A stretch of DNA of 64,000 nucleotides from positions 249,860,001 through 249,924,000 of the forward strand of contig OZ024742.1 in assembly GCA_964016885.1 (NCBI GenBank), read 5' to 3'. Position numbers and translations under genes: made by a program. Position 1 is the stretch's first letter; each line of letters opens with the position of its first letter. The stretch comes from Eledone cirrhosa (Eukaryota). The notes under the pieces were generated by a model. The model saw only the letters and a list, made by a program, of their open reading frames with translations, was not told the DNA's origin and did not search any database. This document shows positions 17,432 through 50,375 of the stretch, piece by piece.

Positions 17432-17434
17432 ACT

Positions 17435-17516
<82 letters not shown>

Positions 17517-27224: not shown

Positions 27225-27260
<36 letters not shown>

Positions 27261-27261
27261 A

Positions 27262-27299
<38 letters not shown>
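27225..27299 (+). repeat. (TAC)n(TAA)n microsatellite, left flank of the retroelement stack
   Basis: Direct reading. Confidence 0.95.
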
Positions 27300-27301
<2 letters not shown>

Positions 27302-29572
27302 GACTGATTTGAGTATCACAGTTGAAACTCTTAAGGGGCAAGCCAAAAAACTAACCAACTGGAAATCACCAGGCCCAGATGGTGTGCAGGGGTATTGGAT
27401 TAAACATTTAACATCCCTCCACCCGAAGCTGACGGCCATGTTCAATGACTGCTTGGTGTCGGGTGAGGTGCCAGAGTGGTTGACAAAAGGTACCACGGTT
27501 CTGATAATGAAAGACCGAATCAAGGGTAATGATGTTACCAACTATAGACCTATCACATGTCTGCCCGTAATGTGGAAACTGTTGACGAGCATTGTGTCTG
27601 AGGAAATCTACCATCACCTCCACACAAACAACTTGTTACCGGACGAACAGAAAGGATGCCGAAAGAAGTCACGTGGTACAAAGGACCAGTTGCTTATTGA
27701 TAAGATGGTAATGGGGAATTGCAGGAGGAGACACACTGATCTTGCCATGGGATGGATAGACTACAGAAAGGCATTTGACATGGTGCCTCATTCCTGGATC
27801 ACCAAAAGCCTGGAGATCTTCAGGGTGGCAGATAACATCAGACAGGTGCTGGGCAGGAGTATGGGGTCCTGGGAGACAGAGTTGACATCAACTGGAGTAT
27901 CCTTGGGAAGCGTGAAGATCAAGAGAGGTATCTTCCAGGGAGATAGCCTGTCCCCTCTGTTGTTTGTCCTTGCCCTGATGCCCTTGACCATTATGCTGCG
28001 AAAAGTGAGAGCAGGATACAAGTTGGGAAGGGGAGAGCTTACCATCAATCACCTCCTCTTCATGGACGATCTTAAGCTCTTCGGGAAAAGTGAGAAGGAG
28101 TTGGATGTGCTTGTTGACACTGTCCGTATTTTCAGCAGTGATATATGTATGCAGTTTGGTATTGGTAAATGTGGAGTCATTGTGATGAAGAGGGGTAGGT
28201 TGAGCAGAAGTAACGGGATCCAGATACCAACAGGTGAGATGATAAAGGAAATTGACTCTGAGGAAGGATACAAGTATTTGGGCGTTCTGGAGGCTGATGG
28301 CATAAAGAACAAAAAAATGAAGGAATTGTTAAGAACTGAATACATTCGGAGAGTAAGGAGCGTATTGAAGTCACATCTGAACAGCAGAAATGCCATAAGC
28401 GCAGTAAATTCCCGAGCTGTGTCTATTATTAGGTACAGTGCGGGAATTCTGAGATGGAATGTTGCTGAACAAAAAGAAATGGATAGGAAGACTAGGAAGC
28501 TATTGACTATCTACAACATGTTCCACAAGAGGAGTGATGTCGATAGACTCTACCTAAGGAGATCTGAGGGTGGAAGAGGTCTTATCAGCATAGAGGACTG
28601 TGTTCAGATGGAGAAAAACAACCTATACAAATACGTGACCTATAGTAAGGAGCCAATGCTCAGAGCTGTACTGAAGGAGGGGACAGTAGGCCAGGGGATA
28701 TCCAAGGAGGAAATAACATCAAGGAGGAAGAGCAGCCTTAAGGGAAAATCCCTTCATAGTACCTTCTTTGAGAAAACTGAGCTTAGAGATCCACAGACAT
28801 GGAACTGGTTGAGAAGAGGACACCTCAAAAAGGCTACAGAAGGAATGCTAATGGCTGCGCAGGAGCAGGCCCTCAAAACGAAGTGGTTGAAGCACCATAT
28901 CTACAAGGAGGAGGCTAGCCCACTGTGCAGGATCTGTGGAGAGAGAGAGGAGACTGTGGCTCACATTGTGTCCGAGTGTAAACACCTAGCCCAGACCCAC
29001 TATAAGGGCTGGAGACACGATGTGATGGGCAGGGTGATCCACTGGCACCTGTGCAAAGTAAACAATCTACCACATTCTGAGAAATGGTATGAGCATAGGC
29101 CAGAGGCGGTGATGGAGAACAGTCAGGTGAAGGTGCTGTGGGATTTTAGGATACAGACGGACAAAAAACTGGAACACAATAGACCTGACCTGGTGGTTGT
29201 GGACAAAGAAAAAAGATCGTGCCTGATTGTGGATGTGGCCTGCCCGTTCGACACGAGAGTGCAAGAGAAGGAGAGGGAGAAAATTAACCGATACCAGGAC
29301 CTAAAGTGGGAGGTGAAAAGGATTTGGAACTGCCATGAAGTCAAAGTGATCCCGATTGTCATAGGCGCACTGGGGACTATCTCCAAAGGTTTCCAGGGAT
29401 GGTTAAAGAAAATCGGCCCCTTCACGCTTTTTGGAACGCTTCAAAAGGCATGCTTGCTTGGAACAGCAAGAACCCTCCGATACGTCCTGAATATCTGAGG
29501 CTGCAGGTAGTGGCTTGATATTCAATCCAACGGACTTTCCAGTTAACCAACATCAATGACTGAGATTCAAGG
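27300..29572 (+). mobile_element. R4/Dong-clade non-LTR retrotransposon (RLE type), 5'-truncated
   Basis: Begins just before RT domain 0, directly after (TAA)n; ~75-bp 3' UTR followed by AATAAC/AAT repeats. Dong-type elements are known to target TAA repeats. Confidence 0.88.
27309..29498 (+). CDS. Reverse transcriptase + CCHC finger + restriction-like endonuclease (N-terminally truncated, no ATG start)
   Basis: Uninterrupted 729 aa: NWKSPGPDG, YRPITCL, GIFQGDSLSP, FMDD, CRIC..ET..H..SEC, RHD, RPD-x-D-x-K RLE core, PIVIGALG. Confidence 0.92.
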   Translation: MSITVETLKGQAKKLTNWKSPGPDGVQGYWIKHLTSLHPKLTAMFNDCLVSGEVPEWLTKGTTVLIMKDRIKGNDVTNYRPITCLPVMWKLLTSIVSEEIYHHLHTNNLLPDEQKGCRKKSRGTKDQLLIDKMVMGNCRRRHTDLAMGWIDYRKAFDMVPHSWITKSLEIFRVADNIRQVLGRSMGSWETELTSTGVSLGSVKIKRGIFQGDSLSPLLFVLALMPLTIMLRKVRAGYKLGRGELTINHLLFMDDLKLFGKSEKELDVLVDTVRIFSSDICMQFGIGKCGVIVMKRGRLSRSNGIQIPTGEMIKEIDSEEGYKYLGVLEADGIKNKKMKELLRTEYIRRVRSVLKSHLNSRNAISAVNSRAVSIIRYSAGILRWNVAEQKEMDRKTRKLLTIYNMFHKRSDVDRLYLRRSEGGRGLISIEDCVQMEKNNLYKYVTYSKEPMLRAVLKEGTVGQGISKEEITSRRKSSLKGKSLHSTFFEKTELRDPQTWNWLRRGHLKKATEGMLMAAQEQALKTKWLKHHIYKEEASPLCRICGEREETVAHIVSECKHLAQTHYKGWRHDVMGRVIHWHLCKVNNLPHSEKWYEHRPEAVMENSQVKVLWDFRIQTDKKLEHNRPDLVVVDKEKRSCLIVDVACPFDTRVQEKEREKINRYQDLKWEVKRIWNCHEVKVIPIVIGALGTISKGFQGWLKKIGPFTLFGTLQKACLLGTARTLRYVLNI

Positions 29573-29851
29573 AATAACAATAACAATAATGATTTCTTTA
29601 TTAACCACAAGGGTTTACATAAAGTAGACATTAAGGACAGTGCAGGACAATGCAGGACGGTACAAATGGGCATTTCTGCGTGTAAAAAACAAAAACAGAG
29701 GATGTAACAAAAATAACAATGAAAATAACAATGAAAAATTCCCCAATAGGGGGGAGACTTCGGAGGGACATTTGTGGAGAAAGCCCAGTAAAAAGCCACA
29801 ATGACCCTGACCACCAAGGCAAGTGCCCTCTCCCAGTTTTCCACCTTTAAT

Positions 29852-32800
29852 TTACAGATATATACTCAGAGTAGGCCCATTCACTCGGGCCATTCTTGCT
29901 TCTCTCACCCATCTTTCAACAAAATGCTGGGAAGAGAGCACTTCCCTCTCTACTCTGATTTTCCTTTTCAAATGAAATTTGAAAAAGTCAATCAGAGCAT
30001 CACCGAAGAGGTAAGTGCTCGTCTTCAGCCCTTTCAAACGTGTCCACAATACTATCTCTTTCGCCATGGCCACCAGACAGATAAAAACAGCCTGCCCTTC
30101 CCGGCTAAAGGAGGAGGGCGGGGCAATCCTCACGATGGACTCAGATGATAGCCGGATCCGTCCTAAACGTGACAGCAGGTGTTCGACATAAACCCACAAG
30201 TCAGCAATTTTCGGACACTGGACGAGTGCGTGCAGGACGGTTTCGTCGCCCTGCGCGCATCTCGGACATGCCCGGCTGACGGCACCTCCATGCCTGTAGA
30301 GTTTATCCCGAACTGGCAAGGCTCCTCGGTAGCACTGCCAGGCCAGAGATTTCTGGAAGTTGTCCATAGGCCCCGGCCCGAAAGTTCTTCCGAAGAGATT
30401 GGCTAGTTGATTTTCGTCGACGCCTAGAGTTTCCCCAAGTACGTCGTCGCTCTTACCCTCCACTAATCCTTTATAGAACGCCGAGGTGGAGTTTCCACCG
30501 ATCACATTGCCCGATTGGTCGAGGGCTGTGAGCGCCTGAAGACATTCCAGTCTCCAGGCGCTCCCTCTCGGTCTTCGCTTGACCCAGGACTGCAGCTCCG
30601 TCAAGGAAACGAGCTGGGGAAAAACGCGTCTAGCAAACGGCGACCACACCTGATCACCGTCGAGGAAGAGGTGGAGATGTCGTAGCCTGAGCGCGTGCCT
30701 GCGCATCATCAGCCACGGCATGCCCAGCCCTCCACGTAGCGGGTGTTGACAACAGATGGACCGCCTGACCATCGGAGCACGTCCCTTCCACAAAAAGCGA
30801 AAGAGCAAACGCTCCAGCGCAGTCAGGCGAGGCTTAGGACAAGGTACGACGGTCAGGCGGTAGCAGATGACAGACGCGATGTACGCGTTAGCCACCTCCG
30901 CTCGACCTTTCAGGGATAGCTTCCTCTCCGCCCATTTCTGGGTGAGAGAAGCCACCCTGCTCGTCACCTCGTCCCAGTTTTTGTCCGTCTGGAGGTCCGG
31001 ACCGAAGCAGACCCCTAGCAATTTAACCGGTCCGTCTGTCCAGCGTCCGACGACGCTGTTGGACGGCATGGACCTGCCTCTCCAGGTGCCGAGCTGCAGG
31101 CCCACTGACTTTTCCTGGTTGATCATTGCTCCTGTCACCGCTTCGTATTCTCTTAATGTAGTGCCGATCGCCTCGATGTGTTTGGCGTTCGACACCACTA
31201 CGGTGACATCGTCCGCATATGCTGACACGGATCTTCCGCATCCTAGTTCGCGCGGGACTCCCCTCAACGTCTCCAGTTTGTGCAGTAATGGCTCGAGAGT
31301 CAATACGTACAAGAGGGACGAGAGGGGACATCCTTGGCGGACCGAGCGCATGATGTTGAACGGTTCCGACAGGTGACCGTTCACTCTCACCACAGAGCAG
31401 ATGTCGCTGTGCATGGCAGCGATCCAGCCTCTGAAGACGGGCCCAAAGCCAGCCGCCCTCAGGACTGCCGCTAGGTAACGATGGTCGACCCTATCGAAAG
31501 CTTTCGACTGATCTAAATTGATCAAGGACCCACCCGTGCCAGGTTCCCTAGCTACCCTCTCTACAATGTATCGCATGGGGTGGAGGTTGTCGTGGATGGA
31601 TCTGTCGGGAATGGCGCATGTCTGCGCCTCTCCCACCAGACCACCAACGACAAGCGCCAACCTCTTTGCTAGCACCTTGGCCAAAATCTTAAACTCTGTG
31701 TTTAGCAGAGTTATGGGCCGGAAATTTTGTATGTTATCCCCCTTGTTCGGATCCTTTCTCAGCAGTGCCACCGCTCCTCGGCTCACAGAACTGGGAATTC
31801 TCCCGTTCTGTTGCCAGTTGCAGTAGACGTCCGCCAAGAGGCCTCCGAACAAGGCTGGCATCTGTACGTAAAGTTTATAGGGCAGACCATCCAAACCAGG
31901 CGATTTACCCCTTGTGCAGCCAGTCATTGCCTCCCTTACTTCAGCGGCTGTTATCGGCTTTTCGCAACACTTCGCCTCAGTGGCCGAGAGCCGCGGCAGT
32001 CCGTCGAGGTAGACACTAAAGTCCATCCCTCTACCCGGCCCCCCGCTGCCCCCGAACAGCTGAGCGAAATGTCGCTGAAAAGCTTCACACATTTTCCCGG
32101 GATCGAGTAGCATGCGCCCGTCGTGGTCCACCAAAGACCGGATCGTGGCTTTGTTGCCACGACGCGCCTCCGCCACGCGGGCCCATTGAACGGCTTTCGT
32201 CCCCTCGTGTCTGAGAGCACGCACCCTAGCTCTGACAACGCAGCCTTCGTGCGTTGCATTGAAGAATTGGTCAAGGGCCAATTTCGCCGCAAGCACGTCG
32301 GTCGCAATGCCTTTGCTAAGCGCCTCGTCTAATTTTCTAACTAGTTCTCCCTCTGCTCTATTTTTCTCTATTGCTAAAGCCTTACTAAACCTAATCGATT
32401 CTATTCTATTCGCTCTTTTCAGAGCAAACCACCACTTGTTGTTGACGATGGCCCCCGTCAACGCCCGCTTAACTAGTTCGCTAACCCGGTCTCTGTAGGC
32501 CTTGCGCGCTGGTAAGGACGCGTTTAGCTTCCAGTAGCCGGGTCCTCGTCTATGAAGCCTATCTAAGTCAAGCACACAGGTCACGAATTTGTGGTCCGTG
32601 TAGCTGACTATCTTGAATTGTGGACAGCCTATGCTAGACCTATCTATTTCCCTACAAAATACTCTATCTAGATATGATCTGGATGACCCTATGCGGTTTG
32701 TCCAAGTCCACATTGGCACATTCGGGAAATCCAATCGGTACCTGTCAGACAGTTCAAAACGCCTGAGCAGGTTGGTGAGGCTCTTGCACCCTCCACCCCT

Positions 32801-33270
32801 ATCCGCTAATCCCACACAGTCCCAGCGTGCATCTAAGATCCCGTTCCAGTCGCCCACTAACACTAAAGAGCGGGACGTTCCAAGAAAGGTCTCCAGACGC
32901 CGGAAGAAATCAGGCCGCCCTGCTCCTGTCGGGGCATAGACGGCCACTAGCCTGAAAGCTTGCCCGTCTCCGCTGGTCACGTCCAGCACCACCAGCTTAC
33001 CCTCTGGGTCCAGGAAGATGGCCCGTATGGCGATCCAAACCTCTCCGAAAAAGCACAGCAACTCCTCCACCCGATCCAGGACGGCTGGGAGATGCGTACA
33101 CATCGTAGCCGCCGAAGATCGGTGCGAAGGCCCGTGCTTCGGAGATTCTGGTCTCGCTGATGGCCACTACATCTATGTTTAGTGACCTGAGGTCGTTGAG
33201 CAGGTGACCCTGCTTCCATGACGACCCCAAGCCACGCGCATTTATGCTGCCTATTCTGAGTGAGGTCATG
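29852..33270 (-). pseudogene. Copy A ORF2 (APE + RT), one 2-bp frameshift near 33030
   Basis: Matches copy C ORF2; GCGATCC versus GCGAGATCC breaks the APE N-terminus. Confidence 0.85.
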
Positions 33271-33304
33271 TTTAAAATAGAGTGGAAAAGATGGAAAAGA
33301 CCAC

Positions 33305-35400
33305 TTACCGTACTTTTGGTAGGAGGGATGGTTTTTACATCCCCTTTCACTTGATCGTCTGGTGAAGGGACCGTTGAATCGTCCCTTCGGCTGGTCGTCG
33401 GCTCTTCTAAGAGAATGTCTGAATATACTCTTCGATTGATGGTTCCTCCTAGGTCCCTGAAATCACCAACTGCGTTGGGGAATTTCGTTTTAATGTTTGT
33501 GTATTGTTTCTGTGCTATTTTTAGCAGTCTTATGTTAGTTGGCGTTTTGATTGGTGCTGGTATTATGTAGTCCTGTTGTGAAATGTCTGTGTGTTCAATT
33601 ATGTAAGTCATTAGTTTCTTGTTGTGTGTGTTTATTGCCGTGCATTTGTTTTTCTGGGGGTGGGGTGTGGTTCTGCTATTTTCTTGTCGTTGTTGCTGGG
33701 TGTGTGTGTTTTGTTGTTGTGTTTGCGATGTTGGTGCTTGTGGTGGTGGTGTTGAAGGTGTTGTTGGCGGTGGGGTTGTCGCCGATGGTGATGGTGGTGC
33801 TGGTGTGGGTGGTGATGGTGTTGGTGGTGTTGCTGCTGTGGGTCTCTTTGCAGTAGACTTTACCCTTTTCTCATTTCTTTCCTCCCTTTTCAAAGGCGAC
33901 GATGCGCTGCTTCTGCGTTTGTGCCTTCTTGCGACCTTTTGCCATCCCTCTCCCACCTCACACTCCATGTCTGATTCTGTGAGGTCGGGGAGGGGTAGCA
34001 GCTCCACTCTTTCACTTGTTGTTGTTGGTGATGTTTGCACTGGAGTCTCTGTTGCAGCTGCATTTGGTATTGCTGTTGTTGTTGTTAATATTTCCACTGC
34101 TGCTGCTGTTTTTGATTTCCGTGGAGTGGGTATGGGTGCCACGGACCTATCGTTCCTGGTTGCCGCTTGTCCTGTTGCTGGTAGCCGTGGAGCCGGATTC
34201 GGAAGGAGGGGGGTTTTCTCCTTTCTCAGGGTCTTCTCGTTGCAGAAGGCCCTGAGGTGAGTCTTCGATCCACAGCGAAAGCATTTCGGGCGTTTGCCCT
34301 CAACACTTATGGGCAGTTGAGTGCCGTTATCGAAGTCTATCACATCCGGGATAGCTTCGATGCACTCCTGGTTGGTTTGGATTAGCATCTCAATGGAGGA
34401 GCCGACCCAATCTTCTCTTACTTTTTTCTGTACTTGCAGTACAGTTGTTTTGTCCTCGATTCCGACGAGGACAGACGCGGCCAACCAAGAAGGGGTCATT
34501 CCGGGGGGGGACGTGGGTCAGTTTGACCCTCACAATTTTTTGCCCGCAGTAGGAGGGCACCAACACCATTTCCTCGCTCCTTAGGGTCACTACTGATTGG
34601 GCCTTTGCCTCCTGGGGTGTGGCAAAAAGTACGTCTACGGTGGCATATTTTTTGCCTCGGGTGATGTGCGTTTTCCGCTGCCACACAGACCCCAAGGCTT
34701 TTTGTATTTGGGCCTCTGTTGCTCTTTCCACCCTACGGGATTTTGTACTTACTGTACGGTACGTGACCGTACAGTGCTCTTGGGTTTCGAAAAATGTTTC
34801 CGCTGCCTTGCAGATTGCTCGGTGTCCGTTCTTTGTCACCATCTTCTTCGCTTCCTCTAATTCCTCATTCGTTATGAGGATTGTTTCCAAGTTTTTCGCA
34901 ATACCTGCAAATGAGATTGGTTTTTCTCTGCTGTTGTTGTTGTCGTCAGAGCTGCTGGTACTTTTGTTGTTGCTGCAGGTACTACGACTACTGCCTCCGC
35001 CGCTGTTGCTGTGGTTGTTGTTGGTGTTGCTGCTGCTAATGCTGTTGTTGTTTATGCTGCTGGTGATGCTGTTGCGACTGCTACTGTTGTTTTCATTGTC
35101 ACTGTTGCTGTTGTTATTACGGCTGCTACTGCTATTATTCCTGACGTCAGACGAATGAACTGGGTTTTCGTATTTCCCGCACACCTGTTTCGTCGCTGTC
35201 GTCGTCGTCGTGGAGAAACCTTGCACGCTTTGCACGAGACTTTTCATTTCTTTCGTCACTTGCGAAAGAGAAGGGAGGGGGAGAGACACATTTAAAGAAG
35301 GGAGGGAGAGAGACAATCTTCTCTCTGCTGTAGTGATGATTGAAGAAGAAGAAGACGGAATGAGTGGGAGTGACGTATGAAATTTCTTTTTCGTAGCCAT
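33305..35400 (-). pseudogene. Copy A ORF1 (CCHC knuckle), frameshift in the G-run near 34505
   Basis: Split across the 336-aa and 500-aa ORFs; CFRCGSKTHLRAFC. Confidence 0.8.
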
Positions 35401-35615
35401 GTTGTTTTTTGTTTAAAATGAAATTTTGGGTACAAAACCCCAATAACTGGTTATTTAACCCCGAAGGGCCAAATAACGGACAGAAAGACCCCTCTCACGA
35501 GGAGGAGGGTGTCTTTATCAACAATTTGGTTCAAGTTTTAAACAATTTACAATTGTTTTAACGGTTAAAAATTACTATACCTTACAGAGCCGAGCCTCCG
35601 TCAACCATGGCATTC

Positions 35616-35633
35616 AATAATAATAATAATAAT
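35616..35633 (+). repeat. (AAT)6 spacer between copies A and B
   Basis: Direct reading. Confidence 0.95.
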
Positions 35634-35894
35634 GATTTCTTTATTAACCACAAGGGTTTACATAAAGTAGACATTAAGGACAGTGTAGGTCAATGCAGGA
35701 CGGTACAAATGGGCATTTCTGCGTGTAAAAAACAAAAACAGAGGATGTAACAAAAATAACAATGAAAATAACAATGAAAAATTCCCCAATAGGGGGGAGA
35801 CTTCGGAGGGACATTTGTGGAGAAAGCCCAGTAAAAAGCCACAATGACCCTGACCACCAAGGCAAGTGCCCTCTCCCAGTTTTCCACCTTTAAT

Positions 35895-38800
35895 TTACAG
35901 ATATATACTCAGAGTAGGCCCATTCACTCGGGCCATTCTTGCTTCTCTCACCCATCTTTCAACAAAATGCTGGGAAGAGAGCACTTCCCTCTCTACTCTG
36001 ATTTTCCTTTTCAAATGAAATTTGAAAAAGTCAATCAGAGCATCACCGAAGGGGTAAGTGCTCGTCTTCAGCCCTTTCAAACGTGTCCACCATACTATCT
36101 CTTTCGCCATGGCCACCAGACAGATAAAAACTGCCTGCCCTTCCCGGCTAAAGGAGGAGGGCGGGGCAATCCTCACGATGGACTCAGATGATAGCCGGAT
36201 CCGTCCTAAACGCGACAGCAGGTGTTCGACATAAACCCACAAGTCAGCAATTTTCGGACACTGGACGAGTGCGTGCAGGACGGTTTCGTCGCCCTGCGCG
36301 CATCTCGGACATGCCCGGCTGACGGCACCTCCATGCCTGTAGAGTTTATCCCGAACTGGCAAGGCTCCTCGGTAGCACTGCCAGGCCAGAGATTTCTGGA
36401 AGTTGTCCATAGGCCCCGGCCCGAAAGTTCTTCCGAAGAGATTGGCTAGTTGATTTTCGTCGACGCCTAGAGTTTCCCCAAGTACGTCGTCGCTCTTACC
36501 CTCCACTAATCCTCTATAGAACGCCGAGGTGGAGTTTCCACCGATCACATTGCCCGATGGTCGAGGGCTGTGAGCGCCTGAAGACATTCCAGTCTCAGGG
36601 CGCTCCCTCTCGGTCTTCGCTTGACCCAGGACTGCAGCTCCGTCAAGGAAACGAGCTGGGGAAATACGCGCCTAGCAAACGGCGACCACACCTGATCACC
36701 GTCGAGGAAGAGGTAGAGATGTCGTAGCCTGAGCGCGTGCCTGCGCATCATCAGCCACGGCATGCCCAGCCCTCCACGTAGCGGGTGTTGACAACAGATG
36801 GACCGCCTGACCATCGGAGCACGTCCCTTCCACAAAAAGCGAAAGAGCAAACGCTCCAGCGCAGTCAGGCGAGGCTTAGGACAAGGTACGACGGTTAGGC
36901 GGTAGCAGATGACAGACGCGATGTACACGTTAGCCCCCTCCGCTCGACCTTTCAGGGATAGCTTCCTCTCCGCCCATTTCTGGGTGAGAGAAGCCACCCT
37001 GCTCGTCACCTCGTCCCAGTTTTTGTCCGTCTGGAGGTCCGGACCGAACCAGACCCCTAACAATTTAACCGGTCCGTCCGTCCAGCGTCCGACGACGCTG
37101 TTGGACGGCATGGACCTGCCTCTCCAGGTGCCGAGCTGCAGGCCCACTGACTTTTCCTGGTTGATCATTGCTCCTGTCACCGCTTCGTATTCTCTTAGTG
37201 TAGTGCCGATCGCCTCGATGTGTTTGGCGTTCGACACCACTACGGTGACATCGTCCGCATATGCTGACACGGATCTTCCGCATCCTAGTTCGCGCCTGAC
37301 TCCCCTCAACGTCTCCAGTTTGTGCAGTAATGGCTCGAGAGTCAATACGTACAAGAGGGACGAGAGGCGACATCCTTGGCGGACCGAGCGCATGATGTTG
37401 AACGGTACAGACAGGTGACCGTTGACTCTCACCACAGAGCAGATGTCGCTGTGCATGGCAGCGATCCAGCCTCTGAAGACGGGCCCAAAGCCAGCCGCCC
37501 TCAGGACTGCCGCTAGGTAACGATGGTCGACCCTATCGAAAGCTTTTGACTGATCTAAATTGATCAAGGACCCACCCGTGCCAGGTTCCTTAGCTACCCT
37601 CTCTATGATGTATCGCATGAGGTGGAGGTTGTCGTGGATGGATCTGTCGGGAATGGCGCATGTCTGCGCCTCTCCCACCAGACCACCAACGACAAGCGCC
37701 AACCTCTTTGCTAGCACCTTGGCCAAAATCTTGAACTCAGAGTTATGGGCCGGAAATTATCTATGTTATCCCCCTTGTTCGGATCCTTTCTCAGCAGTGC
37801 CACCGCTCCTCGGCTCACAGAACTGGGAATTCTCCCGTTCTGTTGCCAGTTGCAGTAGACGTCCGCCAAGAGGCCTCCGAACAAGTCTGGCATCTGTACG
37901 TAAAGTTCATAGGGCAGACCATCCAAACCAGGCGATTTACCCATTGTGCAGCCAGTCATTGCCTCCCTTACTTCAGCGGCTGTTATCGGCTTTTCGCAAC
38001 ACTTCGCCTCAGTGGCCGAGAGCCGCGGCAGTCCGTCGAGGTAGACACTAAAGTCCATCCCTCTACCCGGCCCACCGCTGCCCCCGAACAGCTGAGCGAA
38101 TTGTCGCTGAAAAGCTTCACACATTTTCCCGGGATCGAGTAGCATGCGCCCGTCGTGGTCCACCAAAGACAGGATCGTGGATTTGTTGCCACGACGCGCC
38201 TCCGCCACTCGGGCCCATTGAACGGCTTTCGTCCCCTTGTGTCTGAGAGCACGCACCCTTGCTCTGACAACGCAGCCTTCGTGCTTTGCATTGAAGAATT
38301 GGTCAAGGGCCAATTTCGCCGCAAGCACGTCGGTCGCAATGCCTTTGCTAAGCGCCTCGTCTAATTTTCTAACTAGTTCTCCCTCTACTCTATTTTTCTC
38401 TATTGCTAAAGCCTTACTAAACCTAATCGATTCTATTCTAATCGCTCTTTTCAGAGCAAACCACCACTTGTTGTTGACGATGGGCCCCGTCAACGCCCGC
38501 TTAACTAGTTCGCTAATCCGGTCTCTGTAGGCCTTGCGCGCTGGTAAGGACGCGTTTAGCTTCCAGTAGCCGGGTCCTCGTCTATGAAGCCTATCTAAGT
38601 CAAGCACACAGATCACGAATTTGTGGTCCGTGTAGCTGACTATCTTGAATTGTGGACAGCCTATGCTAGACCTATCTATTTCCCTACAAAATACTCTATC
38701 TAGATATGATCTGGATGACCCTATGCGGTTTGTCCAAGTCCACATTGGCACATTCGGGAAATCCAATCGGTACCTGTCAGACAGTTCAAAACGCCTGAGC

Positions 38801-39303
38801 AGGTTGGTGAGGCTCTTGCACCCTCCACCCCTATCCGCTAATCCCACACAGTCCCAGCGTGCATCTAAGATCCCGTTCCAGTCGCCCACTAACACTAAAG
38901 AGCGGGACGTTCCAAGAAAGGTCTCCAGACGCCGGAAGAAATCAGGCCGCCCTGCTCCTGTCGGGGCATAGACGGCCACTAGCCTGAAAGCTTGCCCGTC
39001 TCCGCTGGTCACGTCCAGCACCACCAGCTTACCCTCTGGGTCCAGGAAGATGGCCCGTATGGCGAGATCCAAACCTCTCCGAAAAAGCACAGCAACTCCT
39101 CCACCCGATCCAGGACGGCTGGGAGATGCGTACACATCGTAGCCGCCGAAGATCGGTGCTAAGGCCCGTGCTTCGGAGATTCTGGTCTCGCTGATGGCCA
39201 CTACATCTATGTTTAGTGACCTGAGGTCGTTGAGCAGGTGACCCTGCTTCCATGACGACCCCAAGCCACGCGCATTTATGCTGCCTATTCTGAGTGAGGT
39301 CAT
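35895..39303 (-). pseudogene. Copy B ORF2 with two frameshifts
   Basis: 10-bp deletion near 37737 and 1-bp deletion near 36558 relative to copy C. Confidence 0.85.
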
Positions 39304-39338
39304 GTTTAAAATAGAGTAGAAAAGATGGGAAAGACCAC

Positions 39339-41045
39339 TTACCGTACTTTTGGTAGAGGAGGGATGGTTTTTACATCCCTTTTCACTTGATCGTCTGGTG
39401 AAGGGACCGTTGAATCGTCCCTTCGGCTGGTCGTCGGCTCTTCTAAGAGAATGTCTGAATATACTCTTCGATTGATGGTTCCTCCTAGGTCCCTGAAATC
39501 ACCAACTGCGTTGGGGAATTTCGTTTTAATGTTTGTGTATTGTTTCTGTGCTATTTTTAGCAGTCTTATGTTAGTTGGCGTTTTGATTGGTGCTGGTATT
39601 ATGTAGTCCTGTTGTGAAATGTCTGTGTGTTCAATTATGTAAGTCATTAGTTTCTTGTTGTGTGTATTTATTGCCGTGCATTTGTTTTTCTGGGGGTGGG
39701 GTGTGGTTCTGCTATTTTCTTGTCGTTGTTGCTGGGTGTGTGTGTTTTGTTGTTGTGTTTGCGATGTTGGTGCTTGTGGTGGTGGTGTTGAAGGTGTTGT
39801 TGGCGGTGGGGTTGTCGCCGGTGGTGATGGTGGTGCTAGTGTGGGTGGTGATGGTGTTGGTGGTGTTGCTGCTGTGGGTCTCTTTGCAGTAGACTTTACC
39901 CTTTTCTAATTTCTTTCCTCCCTTTTCAAAGGCGACGATGCGCTGCTTCTGCGTTTGTGCCTTCTTACGACCTTTTGCCATCCCTCTCCCACCTCACACT
40001 TCATGTCTGATTCTGTGAGGTCGGGGAGGGGTACCAGCTCCACTCTTTCACTAGTTCTTGTTGGTGATTTTTTACAGTGGAGTCTCTGTTGCAGCTGCGG
40101 TTGGTATTACTGTTGTTGTTGCTAATAATTCCACAGGACCTAGCCTTCCTGCTTGCCGCCTGTCCTGTTGCTGGTAGCAGTAGAGCCGGTTTCGATAGGA
40201 GAGGGGGTTCTCCTTTCTCAGGGTCTTCTCATTGCAGAAGGCCCTGAGGTGAGTCTTCGACCCACAGCTAAAGCATTTCAGGCGTTTGCCCTCAACACTT
40301 ATGTGAAGTTGAATGCCGTTATCGAAGTCTATCACATCTGGGATAGCTTCGATGCACTCCTGGTTGGTTTGAATTAACATCTCAGTGGAGGCGCCGACCC
40401 AGTCTTCTCGTACTTATTTCTGTACTGGCACTACGGTTGTTTTGTCCTCGATTCCGACGAGGACAGACGCGGCCAGCCAAGAAGGGGCCATCCGGGGGGG
40501 GGGGGGGGACTTGGGTCAGTTTGAACCTCACAATTTTTTGCCCGCAGTAGGAGGGCACCAACACCATTTCCTCGCTCCTTAGGGTCACTAAGGATTGAGC
40601 CTTTGCCTCCTGGGGTGTGACAAAAAGCACATCCATGGTGGCATATTTCTTGCCTCTGGTGATATGCGTATTCCGCTGCCACACAGACCCTAAGGCTTTT
40701 TGTATTTGAGCCTCTGTGGATCTTTCAACCCTACGTGATTTTGTGCTTACTGTACGGTACGTGACCGTACAGTGCTGTTGGGTTTCGAAAAATTCCGCGG
40801 CTGCCTCGCAGATTGCTCGGTGTCCGGTTTTCGTCACCATCTTCTTTGCTTCCTGTAATTCCTCATTTGTTATAAGGATGGTTTCCAGGTTATTTGCGAT
40901 ACCTGCAAACCAGATTGGTTTTTCTTTCTTGTTGTTGTTGTTGTCGTCAGAGCTGCTGTTACTTTTGTTGTGGCTGCTGGTATTACGACCACCGCCGCCG
41001 CTGTTGCTGTTGTTGTTGTTGTTGCTGGTGTTTCTGCTGTTGTTG

Positions 41046-41081
<36 letters not shown>

Positions 41082-41467
41082 TTGTTGCTGTTGCTGCTGC
41101 TGATGTTGTTGCGGCTGCTACTAGTATTTTTCTCGCCAATGTTGCTGCTGGTACTGTTATTACGGCTGCTGCTGCTATTCTTCATGAAGTCAGACGAATG
41201 AAATGGCTTTCCGTATTTACCGCACACATCTTTCGTCGTCGTGGAGAAATGTTTCACGGCACGCGCGTTCTCTTGATGAAGAACACTATGAGAAACTACA
41301 TTTTTCTTTTTCTTTAATGTTGCCGCTTGCGAAAGAGGCGACAGAGGCGACACCACATTTAGAGAAGGGAGGGAGAGAAACAATATTTTCTCTGACGTAA
41401 TGACGATTGAGGAAGAAGAAGACGGAAGGAGTGGGAGTGACTTGTGAACATTCTTTTTTGTGGCCAC
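39339..41467 (-). pseudogene. Copy B ORF1, fragmented
   Basis: Pieces of 361, 102 and 102 aa homologous to ORF1 of A and C; CFSCGSKTHLRAFC. Confidence 0.8.
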
Positions 41468-41683
41468 ATTTTTTTTTACGGTTTAAAATGAATATTGGCC
41501 ACAAATCCCCAATAACTGGTTATTTAACCCCGAAGGGCCAAATAACGGGCAGAAAGACCCCTCTCACGGTGAGGAGGGTGTCTCTATCTACAATTTAGTT
41601 CAAGTTTTAAACAATTTATAATTGTTATAACGGTTAAAAATTATAATACCTTACAGAGCGGAGCCGCCGTCGATATGGCATTC

Positions 41684-41725
41684 AATAATAATAATAATAA
41701 TAATGATAATAATAATAATAATAAT
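41684..41725 (+). repeat. (AAT)7 GAT (AAT)6 spacer between copies B and C
   Basis: Direct reading. Confidence 0.95.
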
Positions 41726-41988
41726 GATTTCTTTATTAACCACAAGGGTTTACATAAAGTAGACATTAAGGACAGTGCAGGACAATGCAGGACGGTACAA
41801 ATGGGCATTTCTGCGTGTAAAAAAAACAAAAACAGAGGATGTAACAAAAATAACAATGAAAATAACAATGAAAAATTCCCCAATAGGGGGGAGACTTCGG
41901 AGGGACATTTGTGGAGAAAGCCCAGTAAAAAGCCACAATGACCCTGACCACCAAGGCAAGTGCCCTCTCCCAGTTTTCCACCTTTAGT

Positions 41989-44900
41989 TTACAGATATAT
42001 ACTCAGAGTCGGCCCATTCACTCGGGCCATTCTTGCTTCTCTCACCCATCTTTCAACAAAATGCTGGGAAGAGAGCACTTCCTTCTCTACTCTGATTTTC
42101 CTTTTCAAATGAAATTTGAAAAAGTCAATCAGAGCATCACCGAAGAGGTAAGTGCTCGTCTTCAGCCCTTTCAAACGTGTCCACCATACTATCTCTTTCG
42201 CCATGGCCACCAGACAGATAAAAACTGCCTGCCCTTCCCGGCTAAAGGAGGAGGGCGGGGCAATCCTCACGATAGACTCAGATGATAGCTGGATCCGTCC
42301 TAAACGCGACAGCAGGTGTTCGACATAAACCCACAAGTCAGCAATTTTCGGACACTGGACGAGTGCGTGCAGGACGGTTTCGTCGCCCTGCGCGCATCTC
42401 GGACATGCCCGGCTGACGGCACCTCCATGCCTGTAGAGTTTATCCCGAACTGGCAAGGCTCCTCGGTAGCACTGCCAGGCCAGAGATTTCTGGAAGTTGT
42501 CCATAGGCCCTGGCCCGAAAGTTCTTCCGAAGAGATTGGCTAGTTGATTTTCGTCGACGCCTAGAGTTTCCCCAAGTACGTCGTCGCTCTTCCCCTCCAC
42601 TAATCCTCTATAGAACGCCGAGGTGGAGTTTCCACCGATCACATTGCCCGATTGGTCGAGGGCTGTGAGCGCCTGAAGACATTCCAGTCTCCAGGCGCTC
42701 CCTCTCGGTCTTCGCTTGACCCAGGACTGCAGCTCCGTCAAGGAAACGAGCTGGGGAAAAACGCGTCTAGCAAACGGCGACCACACCTGATCACCGTCGA
42801 GGAAGAGGTGGAGATGTCGTAGCCTGAGCGCGTGCCTGCGCATCATCAGCCACGGCATGCCCAGCCCTCCACGTAGCGGGTGTTGACAACAGATGGACCG
42901 CCTGACCATCGGAGCACGTCCCTTCCACAAAAAGCGAAAGAGCAAACGCTCCAGCGCAGTCAGGCGAGGCTTAGGACAAGGTACGACGGTTAGGCGGTAG
43001 CAGATGACAGACGCGATGTACGCGTTAGCCACCTCCGCTCGACCTTTCAGGGATAGCTTCCTCTCCGCCCATTTCTGGGTGAGAGAAGCCACCCTGCTCG
43101 TCACCTCGTCCCAGTTTTTGTCCGTCTGGAGGTCCGGACCGAACCAGACCCCTAGCAATTTAACCGGTCCGTCCGTCCAGCGCCCGACGACGCTGTTGGA
43201 CGGCATGGACCTGCCTCTCCAGGTGCCGAGCTGCAGGCCCACTGACTTTTCCTGGTTGATCATTGCTCCTGTCACCGCTTCGTATTCTCTTAGTGTAGTG
43301 CCGATCGCCTCGATGTGTTTGGCGTTCGACACCACTACGGTGACATCGTCCGCATATGCTGACACGGATCTTCCGCATCCTAGTTCGCGCGGGACTCCCC
43401 TCAACGTCTCCAGTTTGTGCAGTAATGGCTCGAGAGTCAATACGTACAAGAGGGACGAGAGGGGACATCCTTGGCGGACCGAGCGCATGATGTTGAACGG
43501 TTCCGACAGGTGACCGTTCACTCTCACCACAGAGCAGATGTCGCTGTGCATGGCAGCGATCCAGCCTCTGAAGACGGGCCCAAAGCCAGCCGCCCTCAGG
43601 ACTGCCGCTAGGTAACGATGGTCGACCCTATCGAAAGCTTTCGACTGATCTAAATTGATCAAGGACCCACCCGTGCCAGGTTCCCTAGCTACCCTCTCTA
43701 CGATGTATCGCATGAGGTGGAGGTTGTCGTGGATGGATCTGTCGGGAATGGCGCATGTCTGCGCCTCTCCCACCAGACCACCAACGACAAGCGCCAACCT
43801 CTTTGCTAGCACCTTGGCCAAAATCTTAAACTCTGTGTTTAGCAGAGTTATGGGCCGGAAATTGTCTATGTTATCCCCCTTGTTCGGATCCTTTCTCAGC
43901 AGTGCCACCGCTCCTCGGCTCACAGAACTGGGAATTCTCCCGTTCTGTTGCCAGTTGCAGTAGACGTCCGCCAAGAGGCCTCCGAACAAGTCTGGCATCT
44001 GTACGTAAAGTTCATAGGGCAGACCATCCAAACCAGGCGATTTACCCCTTGTGCAGCCAGTCATTGCCTCCCTTACTTCAGCGGCTGTTATCGGCTTTTC
44101 GCAACACTTCGCCTCAGTGGCCGAGAGCCGCGGCAGTCCGTCGAGGTAGACACTAAAGTCCATCCCTCTACCCGGCCCCCCGCTGCCCCCGAACAGCTGA
44201 GCGAAGTGTCGCTGAAAAGCTTCACACATTTGCCCGGGATCGAGTAGCATGCGCCCGTCGTGGTCCACCAAAGACCGGATCGTGGCTTTGTTGCCACGAC
44301 GCGCCTCCGCCACTCGGGCCCATTGAACGGCTTTCGTCCCCTCGTGTCTGAGAGCACGCACCCTAGCTCTGACAACGCAGCCTTCGTGCTTTGCATTGAA
44401 GAATTGGTCAAGGGCCAATTTCGCCGCAAGCACGTCGGTCGCAATGCCTTTGCTAAGCGCCTCGTCTAATTTTCTAACTAGTTCTCCCTCTGCTCTATTT
44501 TTCTCTATTGCTAAAGCCTTACTAAACCTAATCGATTCTATTCTAATCGCTCTTTTCAGAGCAAACCACCACTTGTTGTTGACGATGGCCCCCGTCAACG
44601 CCCGCTTAACTAGTTCGCTAATCCGGTCTCTGTAGGCCTTGCGCGCTGGTAAGGACGCGTTTAGCTTCCAGTAGCCGGGTCCTCGTCTATGAAGCCTATC
44701 TAAGTCAAGCACACAGATCACGAATTTGTGGTCCGTGTAGCTGACTATCTTGAATTGTGGACAGCCTATGCTAGACCTATCTATTTCCCTACAAAATACT
44801 CTATCTAGATATGATCTGGATGACCCTATGCGGTTTGTCCAAGTCCACATTGGCACATTCGGGAAATCCAATCGGTACCTGTCAGACAGTTCAAAACGCC

Positions 44901-45408
44901 TGAGCAGGTTGGTGAGGCTCTTGCACCCTCCACCCCTATCCGCTAATCCCACACAGTCCCAGCGTGCATCTAAGATCCCGTTCCAGTCGCCCACTAACAC
45001 TAAAGAGCGCGACGTTCCAAGAAAGGTCTCCAGACGCCGGAAGAAATCAGGCCGCCCTGCTCCTGTCGGGGCATAGACGGCCACTAGCCTGAAAGCTTGC
45101 CCGTCTCCGCTGGTCACGTCCAGCACCACCAGCTTACCCTCTGGGTCCAGGAAGATGGCCCGTATGGCGAGATCCAAACCTCTCCGAAAAAGCACAGCAA
45201 CTCCTCCACCCGATCCAGGACGGCTGGGAGATGCGTACACATCGTAGCCGCCGAAGATCGGTGCGAAGGCCCGTGCTTCGGAGATTCTGGTCTCGCTGAT
45301 GGCCACTACATCTATGTTTAGTGACCTGAGGTCGTTGAGCAGGTGACCCTGCTTCCATGACGACCCCAAGCCACGCGCATTTATGCTGCCTATTCTGAGT
45401 GAGGTCAT
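41989..45408 (-). CDS. ORF2: AP-like endonuclease + reverse transcriptase + C-terminal CCHC
   Basis: Intact 1139 aa; SINARGL, ISET, VYAP, GDWN, YLDR, TDH (APE); GKSPGLDG, FRPITLLN, QGCPLS, YADD (RT); CPRC..ET..H...C; GPGYWKLN and GGLG motifs typical of Tx1/L1. Confidence 0.95.
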   Translation of the reverse strand: MTSLRIGSINARGLGSSWKQGHLLNDLRSLNIDVVAISETRISEARAFAPIFGGYDVYASPSRPGSGGGVAVLFRRGLDLAIRAIFLDPEGKLVVLDVTSGDGQAFRLVAVYAPTGAGRPDFFRRLETFLGTSRSLVLVGDWNGILDARWDCVGLADRGGGCKSLTNLLRRFELSDRYRLDFPNVPMWTWTNRIGSSRSYLDRVFCREIDRSSIGCPQFKIVSYTDHKFVICVLDLDRLHRRGPGYWKLNASLPARKAYRDRISELVKRALTGAIVNNKWWFALKRAIRIESIRFSKALAIEKNRAEGELVRKLDEALSKGIATDVLAAKLALDQFFNAKHEGCVVRARVRALRHEGTKAVQWARVAEARRGNKATIRSLVDHDGRMLLDPGQMCEAFQRHFAQLFGGSGGPGRGMDFSVYLDGLPRLSATEAKCCEKPITAAEVREAMTGCTRGKSPGLDGLPYELYVQMPDLFGGLLADVYCNWQQNGRIPSSVSRGAVALLRKDPNKGDNIDNFRPITLLNTEFKILAKVLAKRLALVVGGLVGEAQTCAIPDRSIHDNLHLMRYIVERVAREPGTGGSLINLDQSKAFDRVDHRYLAAVLRAAGFGPVFRGWIAAMHSDICSVVRVNGHLSEPFNIMRSVRQGCPLSSLLYVLTLEPLLHKLETLRGVPRELGCGRSVSAYADDVTVVVSNAKHIEAIGTTLREYEAVTGAMINQEKSVGLQLGTWRGRSMPSNSVVGRWTDGPVKLLGVWFGPDLQTDKNWDEVTSRVASLTQKWAERKLSLKGRAEVANAYIASVICYRLTVVPCPKPRLTALERLLFRFLWKGRAPMVRRSICCQHPLRGGLGMPWLMMRRHALRLRHLHLFLDGDQVWSPFARRVFPQLVSLTELQSWVKRRPRGSAWRLECLQALTALDQSGNVIGGNSTSAFYRGLVEGKSDDVLGETLGVDENQLANLFGRTFGPGPMDNFQKSLAWQCYRGALPVRDKLYRHGGAVSRACPRCAQGDETVLHALVQCPKIADLWVYVEHLLSRLGRIQLSSESIVRIAPPSSFSREGQAVFICLVAMAKEIVWWTRLKGLKTSTYLFGDALIDFFKFHLKRKIRVEKEVLSSQHFVERWVREARMARVNGPTLSIYL

Positions 45409-45443
45409 GTTTAAAATAGAGTGGAAAAGATGGGAAAGACCAC

Positions 45444-47544
45444 TTACCGTATTTTTGGTAGAGGAGGGATGGTTTTTACATCCCTTTTCACTTGATCGTC
45501 TGGTGAAGGGACCGTTGAATCGTCCCTTCGGCTGGTCGTCGGCTCTTCTAAGAGAATGTCTGAATATACTCTTCGATTAATGGTTCCTCCTAGGTCCCTG
45601 AAATCACCAACTGCGTTGGGGAATTTCGTTTTAATGTTTGTGTATTGTTTCTGTTCTATTTTTAGCAGTCTTATGTTAGTTGGCGTTTTGATTGGTGCTG
45701 GTATTATGTAGTCCTGTTGTGAAATGTCTGTGTGTTCAATTATGTAAGTCATTAGTTTCTTGTTGTGTGTGTTTATTGCCGTGCATTTGTTTTTCTGGGG
45801 GTGGGGTGTGGTTCTGCTATTTTCTTGTCGTTGTTGCTGGGTGTGTGTGTTTTGTTGTTGTGTTTGCGATGTTGGTGCTTGTGGTGGTGGTGTTGAAGGT
45901 GTTGTTGGCGGTGGGGGTTGTCGCCGGTGGTGATGGTGGTGCTGGTGTGGGTGGTGATGGTGTTGGTGGTGTTGCTGCTGTGGGTCTCTTTGCAGTAGAC
46001 TTTACCCTTTTCTCATTTCTTTCCTCCCTTTTCAAAGGCGACGATGCGCTGCTTCTGCGTTTGTGCCTTCTTGAGACCTTTTGCCATCCCTCTCCCACCT
46101 CACACTCCATGTCTGATTCTGTAAGGTCGGGGAGGGGTACCAGCTCCACTCTTTCACTTGTTGTTGTTGGTGATGTTTGCACTGGAGTCTCTGTTGCAGC
46201 TGCATTTGGTATTGCTGTTGTTGTTGTTAATATTTCCACTGCTGCTGCTGTCTTTGATTTCCGTGGAGTGGGTATGGGTGCCACGGACCTATCGTTCCTG
46301 GTTGCCGCTTGTCCTGTTGCTGGTAGCCGTGGAACCGGATTCGGGAGGAGGGGGGTTTTCTCCTTTCTCAGGGTCTTCTCGTTGCAGAAGGCCCTGAGGT
46401 GAGTCTTCGATCCACAGCGAAAGCATTTCGGGCGTTTGCCCTCAACACTTATGGGCAGTTGAGTGCCGTTATCGAAGTCTATCACATCCGGGATAGCTTC
46501 GATGCACTCCTGGTTGGTTTGGATTAGCATCTCAATGGAGGAGCCGACCCAATCTTCTCTTACTTTTTTCTGTACTTGCAGTACAGTTGTTTTGTCCTCG
46601 ATTCCGACGAGGACAGACGCGGCCAGCCAAGAAGGGGTCATTCCGGGGGGGACGTGGGTCAGTTTGACCCTCACAATTTTTTGCCCGCAGTAGGAGGGCA
46701 CCAACACCATTTCCTCGCTCCTTAGGGTCACTACTGATTGGGCCTTTGCCTCCTGGGGTGTGGCAAAAAGTACGTCTACGGTGGCGTATTTTTTGCCTCG
46801 GGTGATGTGCGTTTTCCTCTGCCACACAGACCCCAAGGCTTTTTGTATTTGGGCCTCTGTGGCTCTTTCCACCCTACGGGATTTTGTACTTACTGTACGG
46901 TACGTGACCGTACAGTGCTCTTGGGTTTCGAAAAAATTTTTCGCTGCCTTGCAGATTGCTCGGTGTCCGTTCTTTGTCACCATCTTCTTCGCTTCCTCTA
47001 ATTCCTCATTTGTTATGAGGATTGTTTCCAGGTTTTTCGCAATACCTGCAAATGAGATTGGTTTTTCTCTGCTGTTGTTGTTGTCGTCAGAGCTGCTGGT
47101 ACTTTTGTTGTTGCTGCAGGTACTACGACTACTGCCTCCGCCGCTGTTGCTGTGGTTGTTGTTGGTGTTGCTGCTGCTAATGCTGTTGTTGTTTATGCTG
47201 CTGGTGATGCTGTTGCGGCTGCTACTGTTGTTTTCATTGTCACTGTTGCTGTTGTTATTACGGCTGCTACTGCTATTATTCCTGACGTCAGACGAATGAA
47301 CTGGGTTTTCGTATTTCCCGCACACCTGTTTCGTCGCTGTCGTCGTCGTCGTGGAGAAACCTTGCACGCTTTGCACGAGACTTTTCTTTTCTTTCGTCGC
47401 TTGCGAAAGAGAAGGTAGGGAGAGAGACACATTTAAAGAAGGGAGGGAGAGAGACAATCTTCTCTCTCCTGTAGTGATGATTGAGGAAGAAGAAGACGGA
47501 ATGAGTGGGAGTGACGTATGAAATTTTTTTTTTTTGGTAGCCAT
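45444..47544 (-). CDS. ORF1, gag-like with one CCHC zinc knuckle (~700 aa; one +1 frameshift in a G-run near 45915)
   Basis: MATKKK start, Asn/Ser-rich tract, C-X2-C-X4-H-X4-C, basic patch, Thr/Pro-rich region; C-terminal part in the 45444-45752 frame. Confidence 0.8.
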
Positions 47545-47784
47545 GTTTTTTTGTTTAAAATGAAATTTTGGGTACAAAACCCCAATAACTGGCTATTTAA
47601 CCCCGAAGGGCCAAATAACGGACAGAAAGACCCCTCTCACGAGGAGGAGGGTGTCTTTATCAACAATTTGGTTCAAGTTTTAAACAATTTACAATTGTTT
47701 TAACGGTTAAAAATTACTATACCTTACAGAGCCGAGCCTCCGTCAACCATGGCATTCAATAATAATAATAATAATAATAATAAT

Positions 47785-47994
47785 TCATTCTACTATAAGC
47801 ACAAGGACAGCAATTTTGGGTCGGGGAAAATTAAATCAACCCCAGTGCAATGCTGGTGCTTTATTTATCAACCCCGCAAATTTGAAAGGCAAAATTAAAC
47901 TCGGCGAAATTTGAACTCAGAACGTAAAGGGACACAACTCTAAGTTGCAAAGCATTTGGTCCGATGCTCTACCGATACTGTCAATTCACCACCC
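47785..47994 (-). mobile_element. Older tRNA-derived SINE whose tail abuts the (AAT)9 flank of copy C
   Basis: Family head, B box GAGTTCAAATT, tail CCTTGTGCTTATAGTAGAATGA(ATT)n. Confidence 0.8.
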
Positions 47995-48013
47995 TCATCA
48001 ACCGCAAAATAAT

Positions 48014-48170
48014 GATTTCTAGTATAGGCACAAGGCAATGCTGGTGCTTTATTTCTCGACACCATAAATTTGAAGAGTTAAGCTAACCTCGGCGGAATTT
48101 AAATTCTTAACGTAAATGGTCGTAACACTATGCCACAAATCATGTTGTCCGACGCTCTACCGATATTACC
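48014..48170 (-). mobile_element. Second tandem SINE copy
   Basis: Tail CCTTGTGCCTATACTAGAAATC ATTATT; family body. Confidence 0.75.
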
Positions 48171-48288
48171 AATAATAATTATTATTATACTAATATTACA
48201 ATTGTATACATATATATAGATATGTGTGTGTGTGTGTGTGCATGTTTGTGTGTGTCTGTGTGTGTGTGTGTGTGCCTCTGTGTGTGTG

Positions 48289-50207: not shown

Positions 50208-50375
50208 TGTTTCTACGTTTGACACAAGGCCAGCAATACCCAGTGATTACTGGTACTTTATGTTATCGACCCCGTAAGGATGAAAGGCAAAGTTAACCTC
50301 TGCGGGATTTGACCGTAAAGGGACGTAACTATGTTGGAAAGCATGTCCGACCCTCTACCAATACTGCCAATTAAC
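50208..50375 (-). mobile_element. tRNA-derived SINE with 9-bp TSD
   Basis: Family sequence; CAAAATAAT at 50199-50207 and 50376-50384. Confidence 0.8.

Follow-up and report, generated by a model that had tools for sequence, protein, structure and literature searches.

The window analysed here, a stretch of 64,000 nucleotides (nt) from Eledone cirrhosa (contig OZ024742.1, positions 249,860,001 to 249,924,000), harbours three copies of a long interspersed nuclear element (LINE) of about 6.0 kb, designated c1, c2 and c3, which are stacked head to tail on the minus strand and separated by repeats that read ATT in the sense of the element (Table 1). The array had been proposed by a preceding sequence-only reading, whose boundaries for the three copies were confirmed. 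In c1, c2 and c3 alike, identical 3' ends are joined to ATT repeats without poly(A), whereas the identity of termini claimed earlier fails at the 5' ends, where c2 agrees with c1 and c3 over the first 9 nt only. The proposed spacers (AAT)6, (AAT)7GAT(AAT)6 and (AAT)9 (forward strand) were likewise recovered; the last of these, correct in length, belongs to the tail of a short interspersed nuclear element (SINE), and the left-hand AATAAC (29573-29584) is no spacer but the family-typical 3' end of a putative Dong/R4-like LINE, recurring with the same letters at L002/L061, at L092 and in three arrays. A separate origin of the copies is upheld by 60 differing sites between c1 and c3, by 252-261 between c2 and the other two, and by the closest relative of c3 among 42 full copies, which resides at another locus and shows 6 differences; c2, however, is not a plain full-length insertion but a chimera. 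Three full-length copies out of three, deemed unusual before, are unexceptional because about half of the family copies keep their head.

Table 1. Features of the LINE array and its flanks (positions within the window).
Feature	Position	Strand	Remarks
Copy c1	29591-35615	-	6025 bp, type-A head; frameshifts in open reading frame 1 (ORF1) and in the endonuclease part of ORF2
Spacer c1/c2, (ATT)6	35616..35633	-	Minimum length found in head-to-tail joints
Copy c2	35634-41683	-	6050 bp; chimera of older-family head and young-family body; several frameshifts
c2 head/body switch	about 39928-40077	-	Informative-site comparison with older and young family
Spacer c2/c3	41684..41725	-	In element sense (ATT)6 ATC (ATT)7; forward (AAT)7GAT(AAT)6
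Copy c3	41726-47757	-	6032 bp; youngest of the three
c3 ORF2	41989-45408	-	Open, 1139 amino acids (aa); apurinic (AP)-type endonuclease, reverse transcriptase (RT), zf-RVT
c3 ORF1	from 47544	-	One CCHC knuckle; 1-bp frameshift near 45913
c3 3'-terminal hairpin	41738..41750	-	4-bp stem, CUUGU loop; common to related LINEs and the SINE
c3 5' untranslated region (UTR)	47545..47757	-	Several hairpins, z -3.3
(ATT)9	47758..47784	-	SINE tail, equal to the 5' flank of c3
SINE-like repeat	47788..48010	-	Orientation as the LINEs; head presumably tRNA-like
Second SINE copy, older	48008..48190	-	Ends ...GAAATC ATTATT as in the LINE
(AAT)2 between Dong-like end and c1	29585..29590	+	Unusually short; other such joints have 6-21 repeats
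Compound microsatellite (TAC)12-(AAT)12	27225..27299	+	5' flank of the putative Dong/R4-like element
Putative Dong/R4-like LINE, 5'-truncated	27300..29584	+	3' end includes AATAACAATAAC; tail to tail with c1

Judged by its predicted proteins, the element is a LINE of the L1 clade in the broad sense that includes Tx1. ORF2 of c3 matches Pfam PF03372, PF00078 and PF13966, corresponding to an N-terminal AP endonuclease, an RT and a C-terminal zinc motif; its best solved match is human L1 ORF2p (3e-52, versus 1e-21 for R2), and the catalytic-type residues E39, D141, N143, D202, D226 and H227 are nearly invariant among 19 relatives. A separate ORF1 with a CCHC knuckle, a trait of the same broad clade, is present as well; it gave no Pfam match at the cut-off, and its look-alikes are zf-CCHC/ZCCHC3-type RNA-binding clusters (score 0.90-0.93). 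Within the clade, the element probably belongs to the Tx1 group. The RT region scores 270-303 bits against turtle and wrasse proteins versus 134 against human L1, and the nearest named proteins are those of Argonauta hians (73% over the RT region; another match 58%), in keeping with an octopod host, while the searches for named relatives returned no named Tx1 sequence. An extended hairpin loop, a trait of the Tx1L endonuclease, was not found, the alignment being gapless to the human L1 endonuclease and containing two gaps against the LTX graft.

The genome (assembly G000, 3.0 Gb) was searched with sequence patterns, the counts given here being numbers of matches, and the reversed patterns used as control yielded 0 matches in each search. 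Exact 3'-end motifs number 9,501, including 3,704 of the youngest form, 3,031 of which are followed by (ATT)3. With 4,692 exact head motifs, the ratio of heads to tails is about one to two. Type-A heads are preceded directly, and in one phase, by (ATT)6 or more in 2,375 of 2,652 cases, and the boundary ATT|GAATG recurred in 30/30 heads that had been chosen by an internal motif. A second head, type B (2,343 motifs), is largely unrelated to type A but shares the same body from position ~2266 and is also found after ATT runs. Among the first 100 young tails on contig C1, a type-A head lies 4.5-7.5 kb upstream in 41, and a type-B junction was detected in 10/40 of the other young-tail copies fetched from this contig. 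At the opposite end, 56 of 61 sampled tails begin with ATT and none carries the poly(A) of mammalian-type L1 (0/61). Moreover, all five runs of at least four AAT/ATT units in the window adjoin elements of the cluster, so that, given the empty control, the association of array and repeat is not due to chance.

These flanks point to a family that is very probably specific for (ATT)n as target, as the sequence-only reading had proposed, and most of the other genomic copies scored for their flanks conform to it. Several observations weigh against this specificity: 12/61 tails contain at most two pure ATT units, 5/61 do not begin with ATT, the tail of c1 has two units only, and the distinction between a genomic target and repeats carried on the RNA is drawn from flanks, i.e. 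from sites read only after insertion. At 11 truncated junctions, ATT precedes the internal breakpoint in 5, and another trinucleotide run in 2; 1 junction is ambiguous, and 3/11 have no repeat upstream; since ATT occurs upstream of truncated breakpoints, the repeat is not explained by the tail alone. Insertion appears to duplicate about six repeats (about 18 bp) of the target, because the listed joints are never shorter than 18 nt and the interrupted spacer of c3 caps its duplication at six; ends with one or two repeats, including that of c1, are exceptions to this length. Some copies (L010, L021, L014, L096) lie in runs of (ACT)n or (CTT)n that mostly open with a single ATT, and judged from these the specificity is slightly relaxed.

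The middle copy of the array combines an old head with a young body. While c2 is only ~87% identical to c1 and c3 in the first ~1.75 kb, identity reaches ~98.5% over the remainder, and its informative sites follow the older family at 108/115 positions before 1600 and the young family at 543/551 after 2300. The head carries 52 private changes, the longer body 22. The first 17 nt of c2 occur once in the genome, and a marker of its head has 83 matches within one mismatch; among the 16 carriers fetched, the intact ones encode an ORF2 that is only ~80-83% like that of c2. Membership of c2 in a young subfamily was rejected, as the other fetched carriers are old-bodied or broken, and L235 among them represents a second chimera. 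In the simplest reading, c2 would go back to an old resident copy in which the body gave way to a young complementary DNA (cDNA) primed in its ATT tail. Against this stands the fact that c2 is one copy with a 13%-divergent head, for which a rare chimeric master is a possible source. The older family behind the c2 head is unevenly spread, with 20/83 marker matches on C28 and 7 in C4:167.8-171.9 Mb.

Arrays are a regular feature of the family. The pattern for head-to-tail joints, which required a type-A head and covered a limited spacer length, matches 642 times genome-wide, none of 100 listed joints is shorter than 18 nt in spite of being allowed by the pattern, and on C1 successive tails lie within 8 kb of each other in 14/99 cases versus 0.9 expected. 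From 16 arrays, 40 further joints and the window, 50 pairs of neighbours were obtained in which both copies bear a type-A head. In 17 of these, the identical 5' tract of the neighbours is longer than that of either with any sampled non-neighbour; 5' tracts of at least 500 nt occur in 14/50 neighbour pairs versus 0.46% of 5,601 non-neighbour pairs, and 3' tracts of 1,000 nt in only 2/28 neighbour pairs. The shared tracts hold variants absent from all other sampled copies. Regeneration of the target by each insertion, to which the growth of arrays had initially been ascribed, is thus not sufficient alone, because a third of the neighbouring pairs share a 5' tract.

The spacers retain a further trace of this process. 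In 12 of 20 impure spacers, a stretch of 3-816 letters other than the repeat recurs from the flank outside the upstream copy, and the duplicated flanks start directly at the LINE 3' end or a few letters away from it. A 5' tract of at least 300 nt accompanies 8/12 of the flank-repeating spacers versus 1/8 of the other impure ones. In array A57, three copies have a 42-nt imperfect flank in common and share an old head over 550 and 1,290 nt, and their bodies become younger toward the 5' side. Two further arrangements were noted on C1: a five-copy array (G000:C1:55423200-55456100) with a Dong-like fragment of ~880 bp duplicated between copies, and a spacer of ~240 bp repeated 18 kb apart (G000:C1 234598200-234617500), where one copy pair is identical.

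An explanation has to account for a family that adjoins the repeat on both sides, ends without poly(A), forms arrays, includes the chimera c2 and shares tracts between neighbours in a polar manner, at the 5' side. We propose that the element nicks the AAT strand within an (ATT)n run and duplicates about six repeats, whereby each insertion would leave fresh target on either side. ORF2p would recognise its own RNA through the CUUGU hairpin at the 3' end and prime reverse transcription at the nick. The new cDNA, when formed beside a related resident copy, may often pair with this resident instead of being joined end to end. If the nick lies upstream of the resident, the spacer and the 5' part of the resident would be duplicated in front of the new body, giving rise to arrays with shared heads; if it lies downstream, the body would be replaced and the head retained, as in c2. 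Pairing with the resident would thereby save cDNAs truncated at the 5' end, exchange heads among lineages and add to the ~50% of copies that are headed. Completion of cDNA on a neighbouring template is considered probable, and the same holds for the proposal as a whole. Intact heads, at times of 10-25 nt, that are fused to a distant internal position (L042:1087, L098:3564, L099, L074, L146, L147, L168, L173) may constitute a non-homologous version of such recycling of heads.

Several facts weigh against completion on a neighbour. Sharing of this kind is absent from 33/50 pairs, the window array included, all pairs but those of the window derive from C1, 32 of the 40 extra joints were chosen for a young 3' end, and the pairs are not independent since several may come from one array. 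Moreover, a variant counts as private when unseen in about 100 sampled copies only, and two of the 12 flank repeats are just three letters long and may be due to chance. The age direction is weak: of the 17 sharing pairs, 11 show fewer private changes in the upstream copy, 3 show more and 3 an equal number (binomial p 0.09, computed on 10 vs 3). In the pairs A179 1-2 and A234 1-2 the 3' part is shared too, which fits unequal crossing-over, duplication or mis-assembly, and a third pair, A439 1-2, shares 948 nt; an ordinary process of exchange or duplication hence also occurs.

The pairs without sharing, the complementary 5' and 3' tracts of A179, the identity of A234 1-2 and the tandem expansion by unequal exchange described for R1 in excerpts of 10.1101/158386 all suit an account in which simple repeated insertions, each with a short target duplication, were followed by ordinary recombination, such as unequal crossing-over or gene conversion, to yield both the shared heads and c2. 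Yet the 3' part of a crossing-over hybrid should match the upstream neighbour, which is not so in A57, A114, A118, A436 and the two-copy array A94; neither could crossing-over duplicate the unique flank upstream of the first copy, these duplications starting right at the LINE 3' end, nor has conversion any reason to begin at the 5' end. We regard this account as unlikely. It is still less probable that ATT repeats travel on the RNA at both ends by read-through, anneal to a short ATT patch and make or lengthen the microsatellite there. The sharp floor of about six repeats in one phase at full-length heads and tails that nearly always open with ATT, even before ACT or CTT runs, speak in its favour, but ATT is also found upstream of truncated copies (L003, L009, L013, L020, L024, L080, L093, L097), the duplicated flanks are locus-specific instead of family-inherited, and some heads have only 1-2 repeats; in part, carriage of repeats on the RNA would be compatible with the preferred mechanism. 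Assembly artefacts or segmental duplications are a very improbable source of the arrays: the identical pair in A234 would fit, and contigs from four other sequencing runs did not bridge the c2 switch, but the window copies differ from each other at 60-261 sites and have nearer kin elsewhere, and the 642 joints display varied spacers and partners of differing age and head type.

The SINE of ~180-220 bp that adjoins c3 is highly abundant: a single motif of its end, when followed by (ATT)3, already accounts for at least 28,360 matches. Its 3' end resembles that of the LINE, featuring a CUUGU loop on a stem of 3-4 bp located 16 nt before the tail, and many of its copies, truncated ones included, follow ATT runs. 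Across 14 selected LINE and SINE ends, three of the four stem pairs change on both sides and 92.9% of cells are paired, a score reached by 0/500 shuffles, with slid controls at 14-54%. The common 3' sequence and stem-loop thus agree with the stringent definition of a SINE/LINE pair, albeit on a short match and a small selected set. Mobilisation of the SINE by the LINE enzymes via the common hairpin is, on this comparison, rather likely. On the opposite side, two of five measures, which count pairs and types, do no better than shuffles (339 and 295 of 500), the 14 rows stem from a motif search that fixes the loop and represent three related groups, the hairpin has only 4 bp, and ATT is missing upstream of several SINE copies. 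At 50202-50236 (-) of the window lies one more SINE 3' end that carries both the CUUGU hairpin and an ATT tail.

Similar hairpins were observed at the other end of the LINE. The 5' UTR of type-B heads (L006, L158, L091) contains one with a CUUGU or CUUGA loop, as at the 3' end, ~150-175 nt from the 5' end, and type-A heads carry a similar hairpin in the corresponding position, there with a UUUGU loop (window 47565-47585, minus strand); ORF2p might bind both RNA ends. A self-cleaving ribozyme in this region was rejected, given no Rfam match near the gathering score and 0/37 compensatory pairs in 23 heads.

The second neighbour of the array appears to be a Dong/R4-like element, a name chosen because of its motifs and of the TAA target given for Dong in PMC3812793. 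Its open 732-aa frame (27300-29498) comprises an RT, a zinc finger and a restriction-like endonuclease motif; the RT matches Pfam RVT_1 at 4e-23, and the best solved relatives are R2 proteins (1e-30 versus 1e-13 for L1). The element is flanked at both ends by (AAT)n, and 19/61 LINE tails continue into the inverted 3' end of an element from either of two Dong-like families. Direct joints of a truncated LINE inside an opposite-strand Dong-like copy, with no ATT in between, were found at L071, L076, L079, L095 and L063, where one insertion probably deleted the repeat run. Dong/R4-like LINEs would accordingly exploit these repeats via the opposite strand, and ATT runs may serve as mixed landing hubs. 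Taken together, an integrated reading can be drawn tentatively, one that is possible though not quite probable: 5' completion on a neighbour would be routine and swap heads, i.e. promoter and ORF1, in the germline, the same enzyme lineage would drive one of the most abundant SINEs of octopods via the CUUGU hairpin, and ATT runs would be shared with opposite-strand Dong elements.

Published systems, cited here from excerpts of the respective papers, anticipate parts of this picture. Tx1 families residing in microsatellites comprise Kibi in (TC)n, Koshi in (TTC)n and crocodilian elements in (TTCC)n/(TTTC)n (PMC4494074, PMC3812793). Like these, the present element is an L1/Tx1-type LINE with an AP endonuclease and repeats on both sides; it differs in its (ATT)n target, cephalopod host and thousands of copies, half of them headed, and neither sharing of heads nor a 3'-matched SINE figures in the descriptions examined. 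Dong of B. mori, A. gambiae and B. glabrata is specific for TAA repeats (PMC3812793), the very microsatellite used here and occupied at the same runs by Dong/R4-like elements, but the Dong enzyme, with an R2-like RT and a restriction-like endonuclease, is unrelated and acts on the opposite strand; the LINE studied here is not Dong. Tandem insertion where a target has been regenerated has precedents in R1 arrays and double insertions in Drosophila (10.1101/158386) and in tandem SINEU-3 (PMC4494074), which resemble the present arrays in head-to-tail stacking via a target duplication that recreates the site. Unlike the excerpted R1 report, where most non-LTR tandems are tail-to-truncated, stacking is here largely head to tail, with a 5' tract common to a third of the type-A pairs. 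In human L1 chimeric insertions with templated duplications, the growing cDNA likewise anneals to homologous DNA close by, which becomes duplicated (10.1101/2024.08.27.596794); those events are rare, mostly <250 bp and from tumours, whereas the present ones are fixed in the germline, occur frequently, reach ~4 kb and are promoted by targeting beside earlier copies.

With regard to the SINE, stringent SINE/LINE pairs with a 3' stem-loop include maize ZmSINE2/LINE1-1_ZM (PMC3747384), and this pair together with SINEU/Tx1-Mar (PMC4494074) provides, between them, the 3' hairpin with conserved loop and variable stem and the common target preference seen here. The L1-clade pairs with a common 3' end named in the excerpts of these two papers are from plants and an alga, and SINEU is tied to Tx1 by its target only. 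In O. vulgaris, L1-Tx1 and Dong-R4 are listed as recently active, with no target named in the part available, and SINEs make up 11.6% of the genome (PMC13282606); the excerpts of PMC4758252, PMC4824008, PMC9004415, PMC5753468 and PMC10294476 name neither a partner of an octopus SINE nor an (ATT)n LINE target. The open-licence literature of PMC and bioRxiv (Repbase and subscription journals lying outside this search) contained no report of this target, of polar head sharing or of the SINE pairing. Microsatellite-targeting Tx1 elements and stacking by re-insertion are already known, while the (ATT)n-specific family, the polar sharing of heads and the pairing with the SINE, each at the strength given above, appear new against the literature covered.

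The attachment of the 5' end and the start of second-strand synthesis are poorly resolved steps in non-LTR retrotransposons, and hundreds of natural pairs would record this step and be countable from one assembly. If true, the proposed mechanism would explain the unusually high full-length share and provide a route for the exchange of 5' modules between LINE lineages. In addition, it provides a very abundant SINE with a partner open to testing, in animals whose genomes consist of SINEs to a large part, and an (ATT)n-directed LINE often delivering 6 kb intact would be of interest for targeted insertion. On the practical side, ATT-repeat markers in such genomes will often be flanked by elements.

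Horizontal transfer was considered as well, since words of the element occur in 20 listed sequencing runs with many organism codes, none of these runs being RNA. Depth was ~2-40 in two of three contig runs of other organisms, only X8 being deep; as such depth fits trace DNA, no claim of transfer is made. Outside the array, the window contains a broken RT-coding fragment of another LINE at 8109-9162 (+; Pfam RVT_1 1.5e-23), and frames at 61417-62432 (-) that have no Pfam match resemble a decayed retroelement fragment, possibly Penelope-like. A 168-bp tandem duplication and a pair of inverted repeats of ~350 bp are located at 6202-6550 and 16448-17438.

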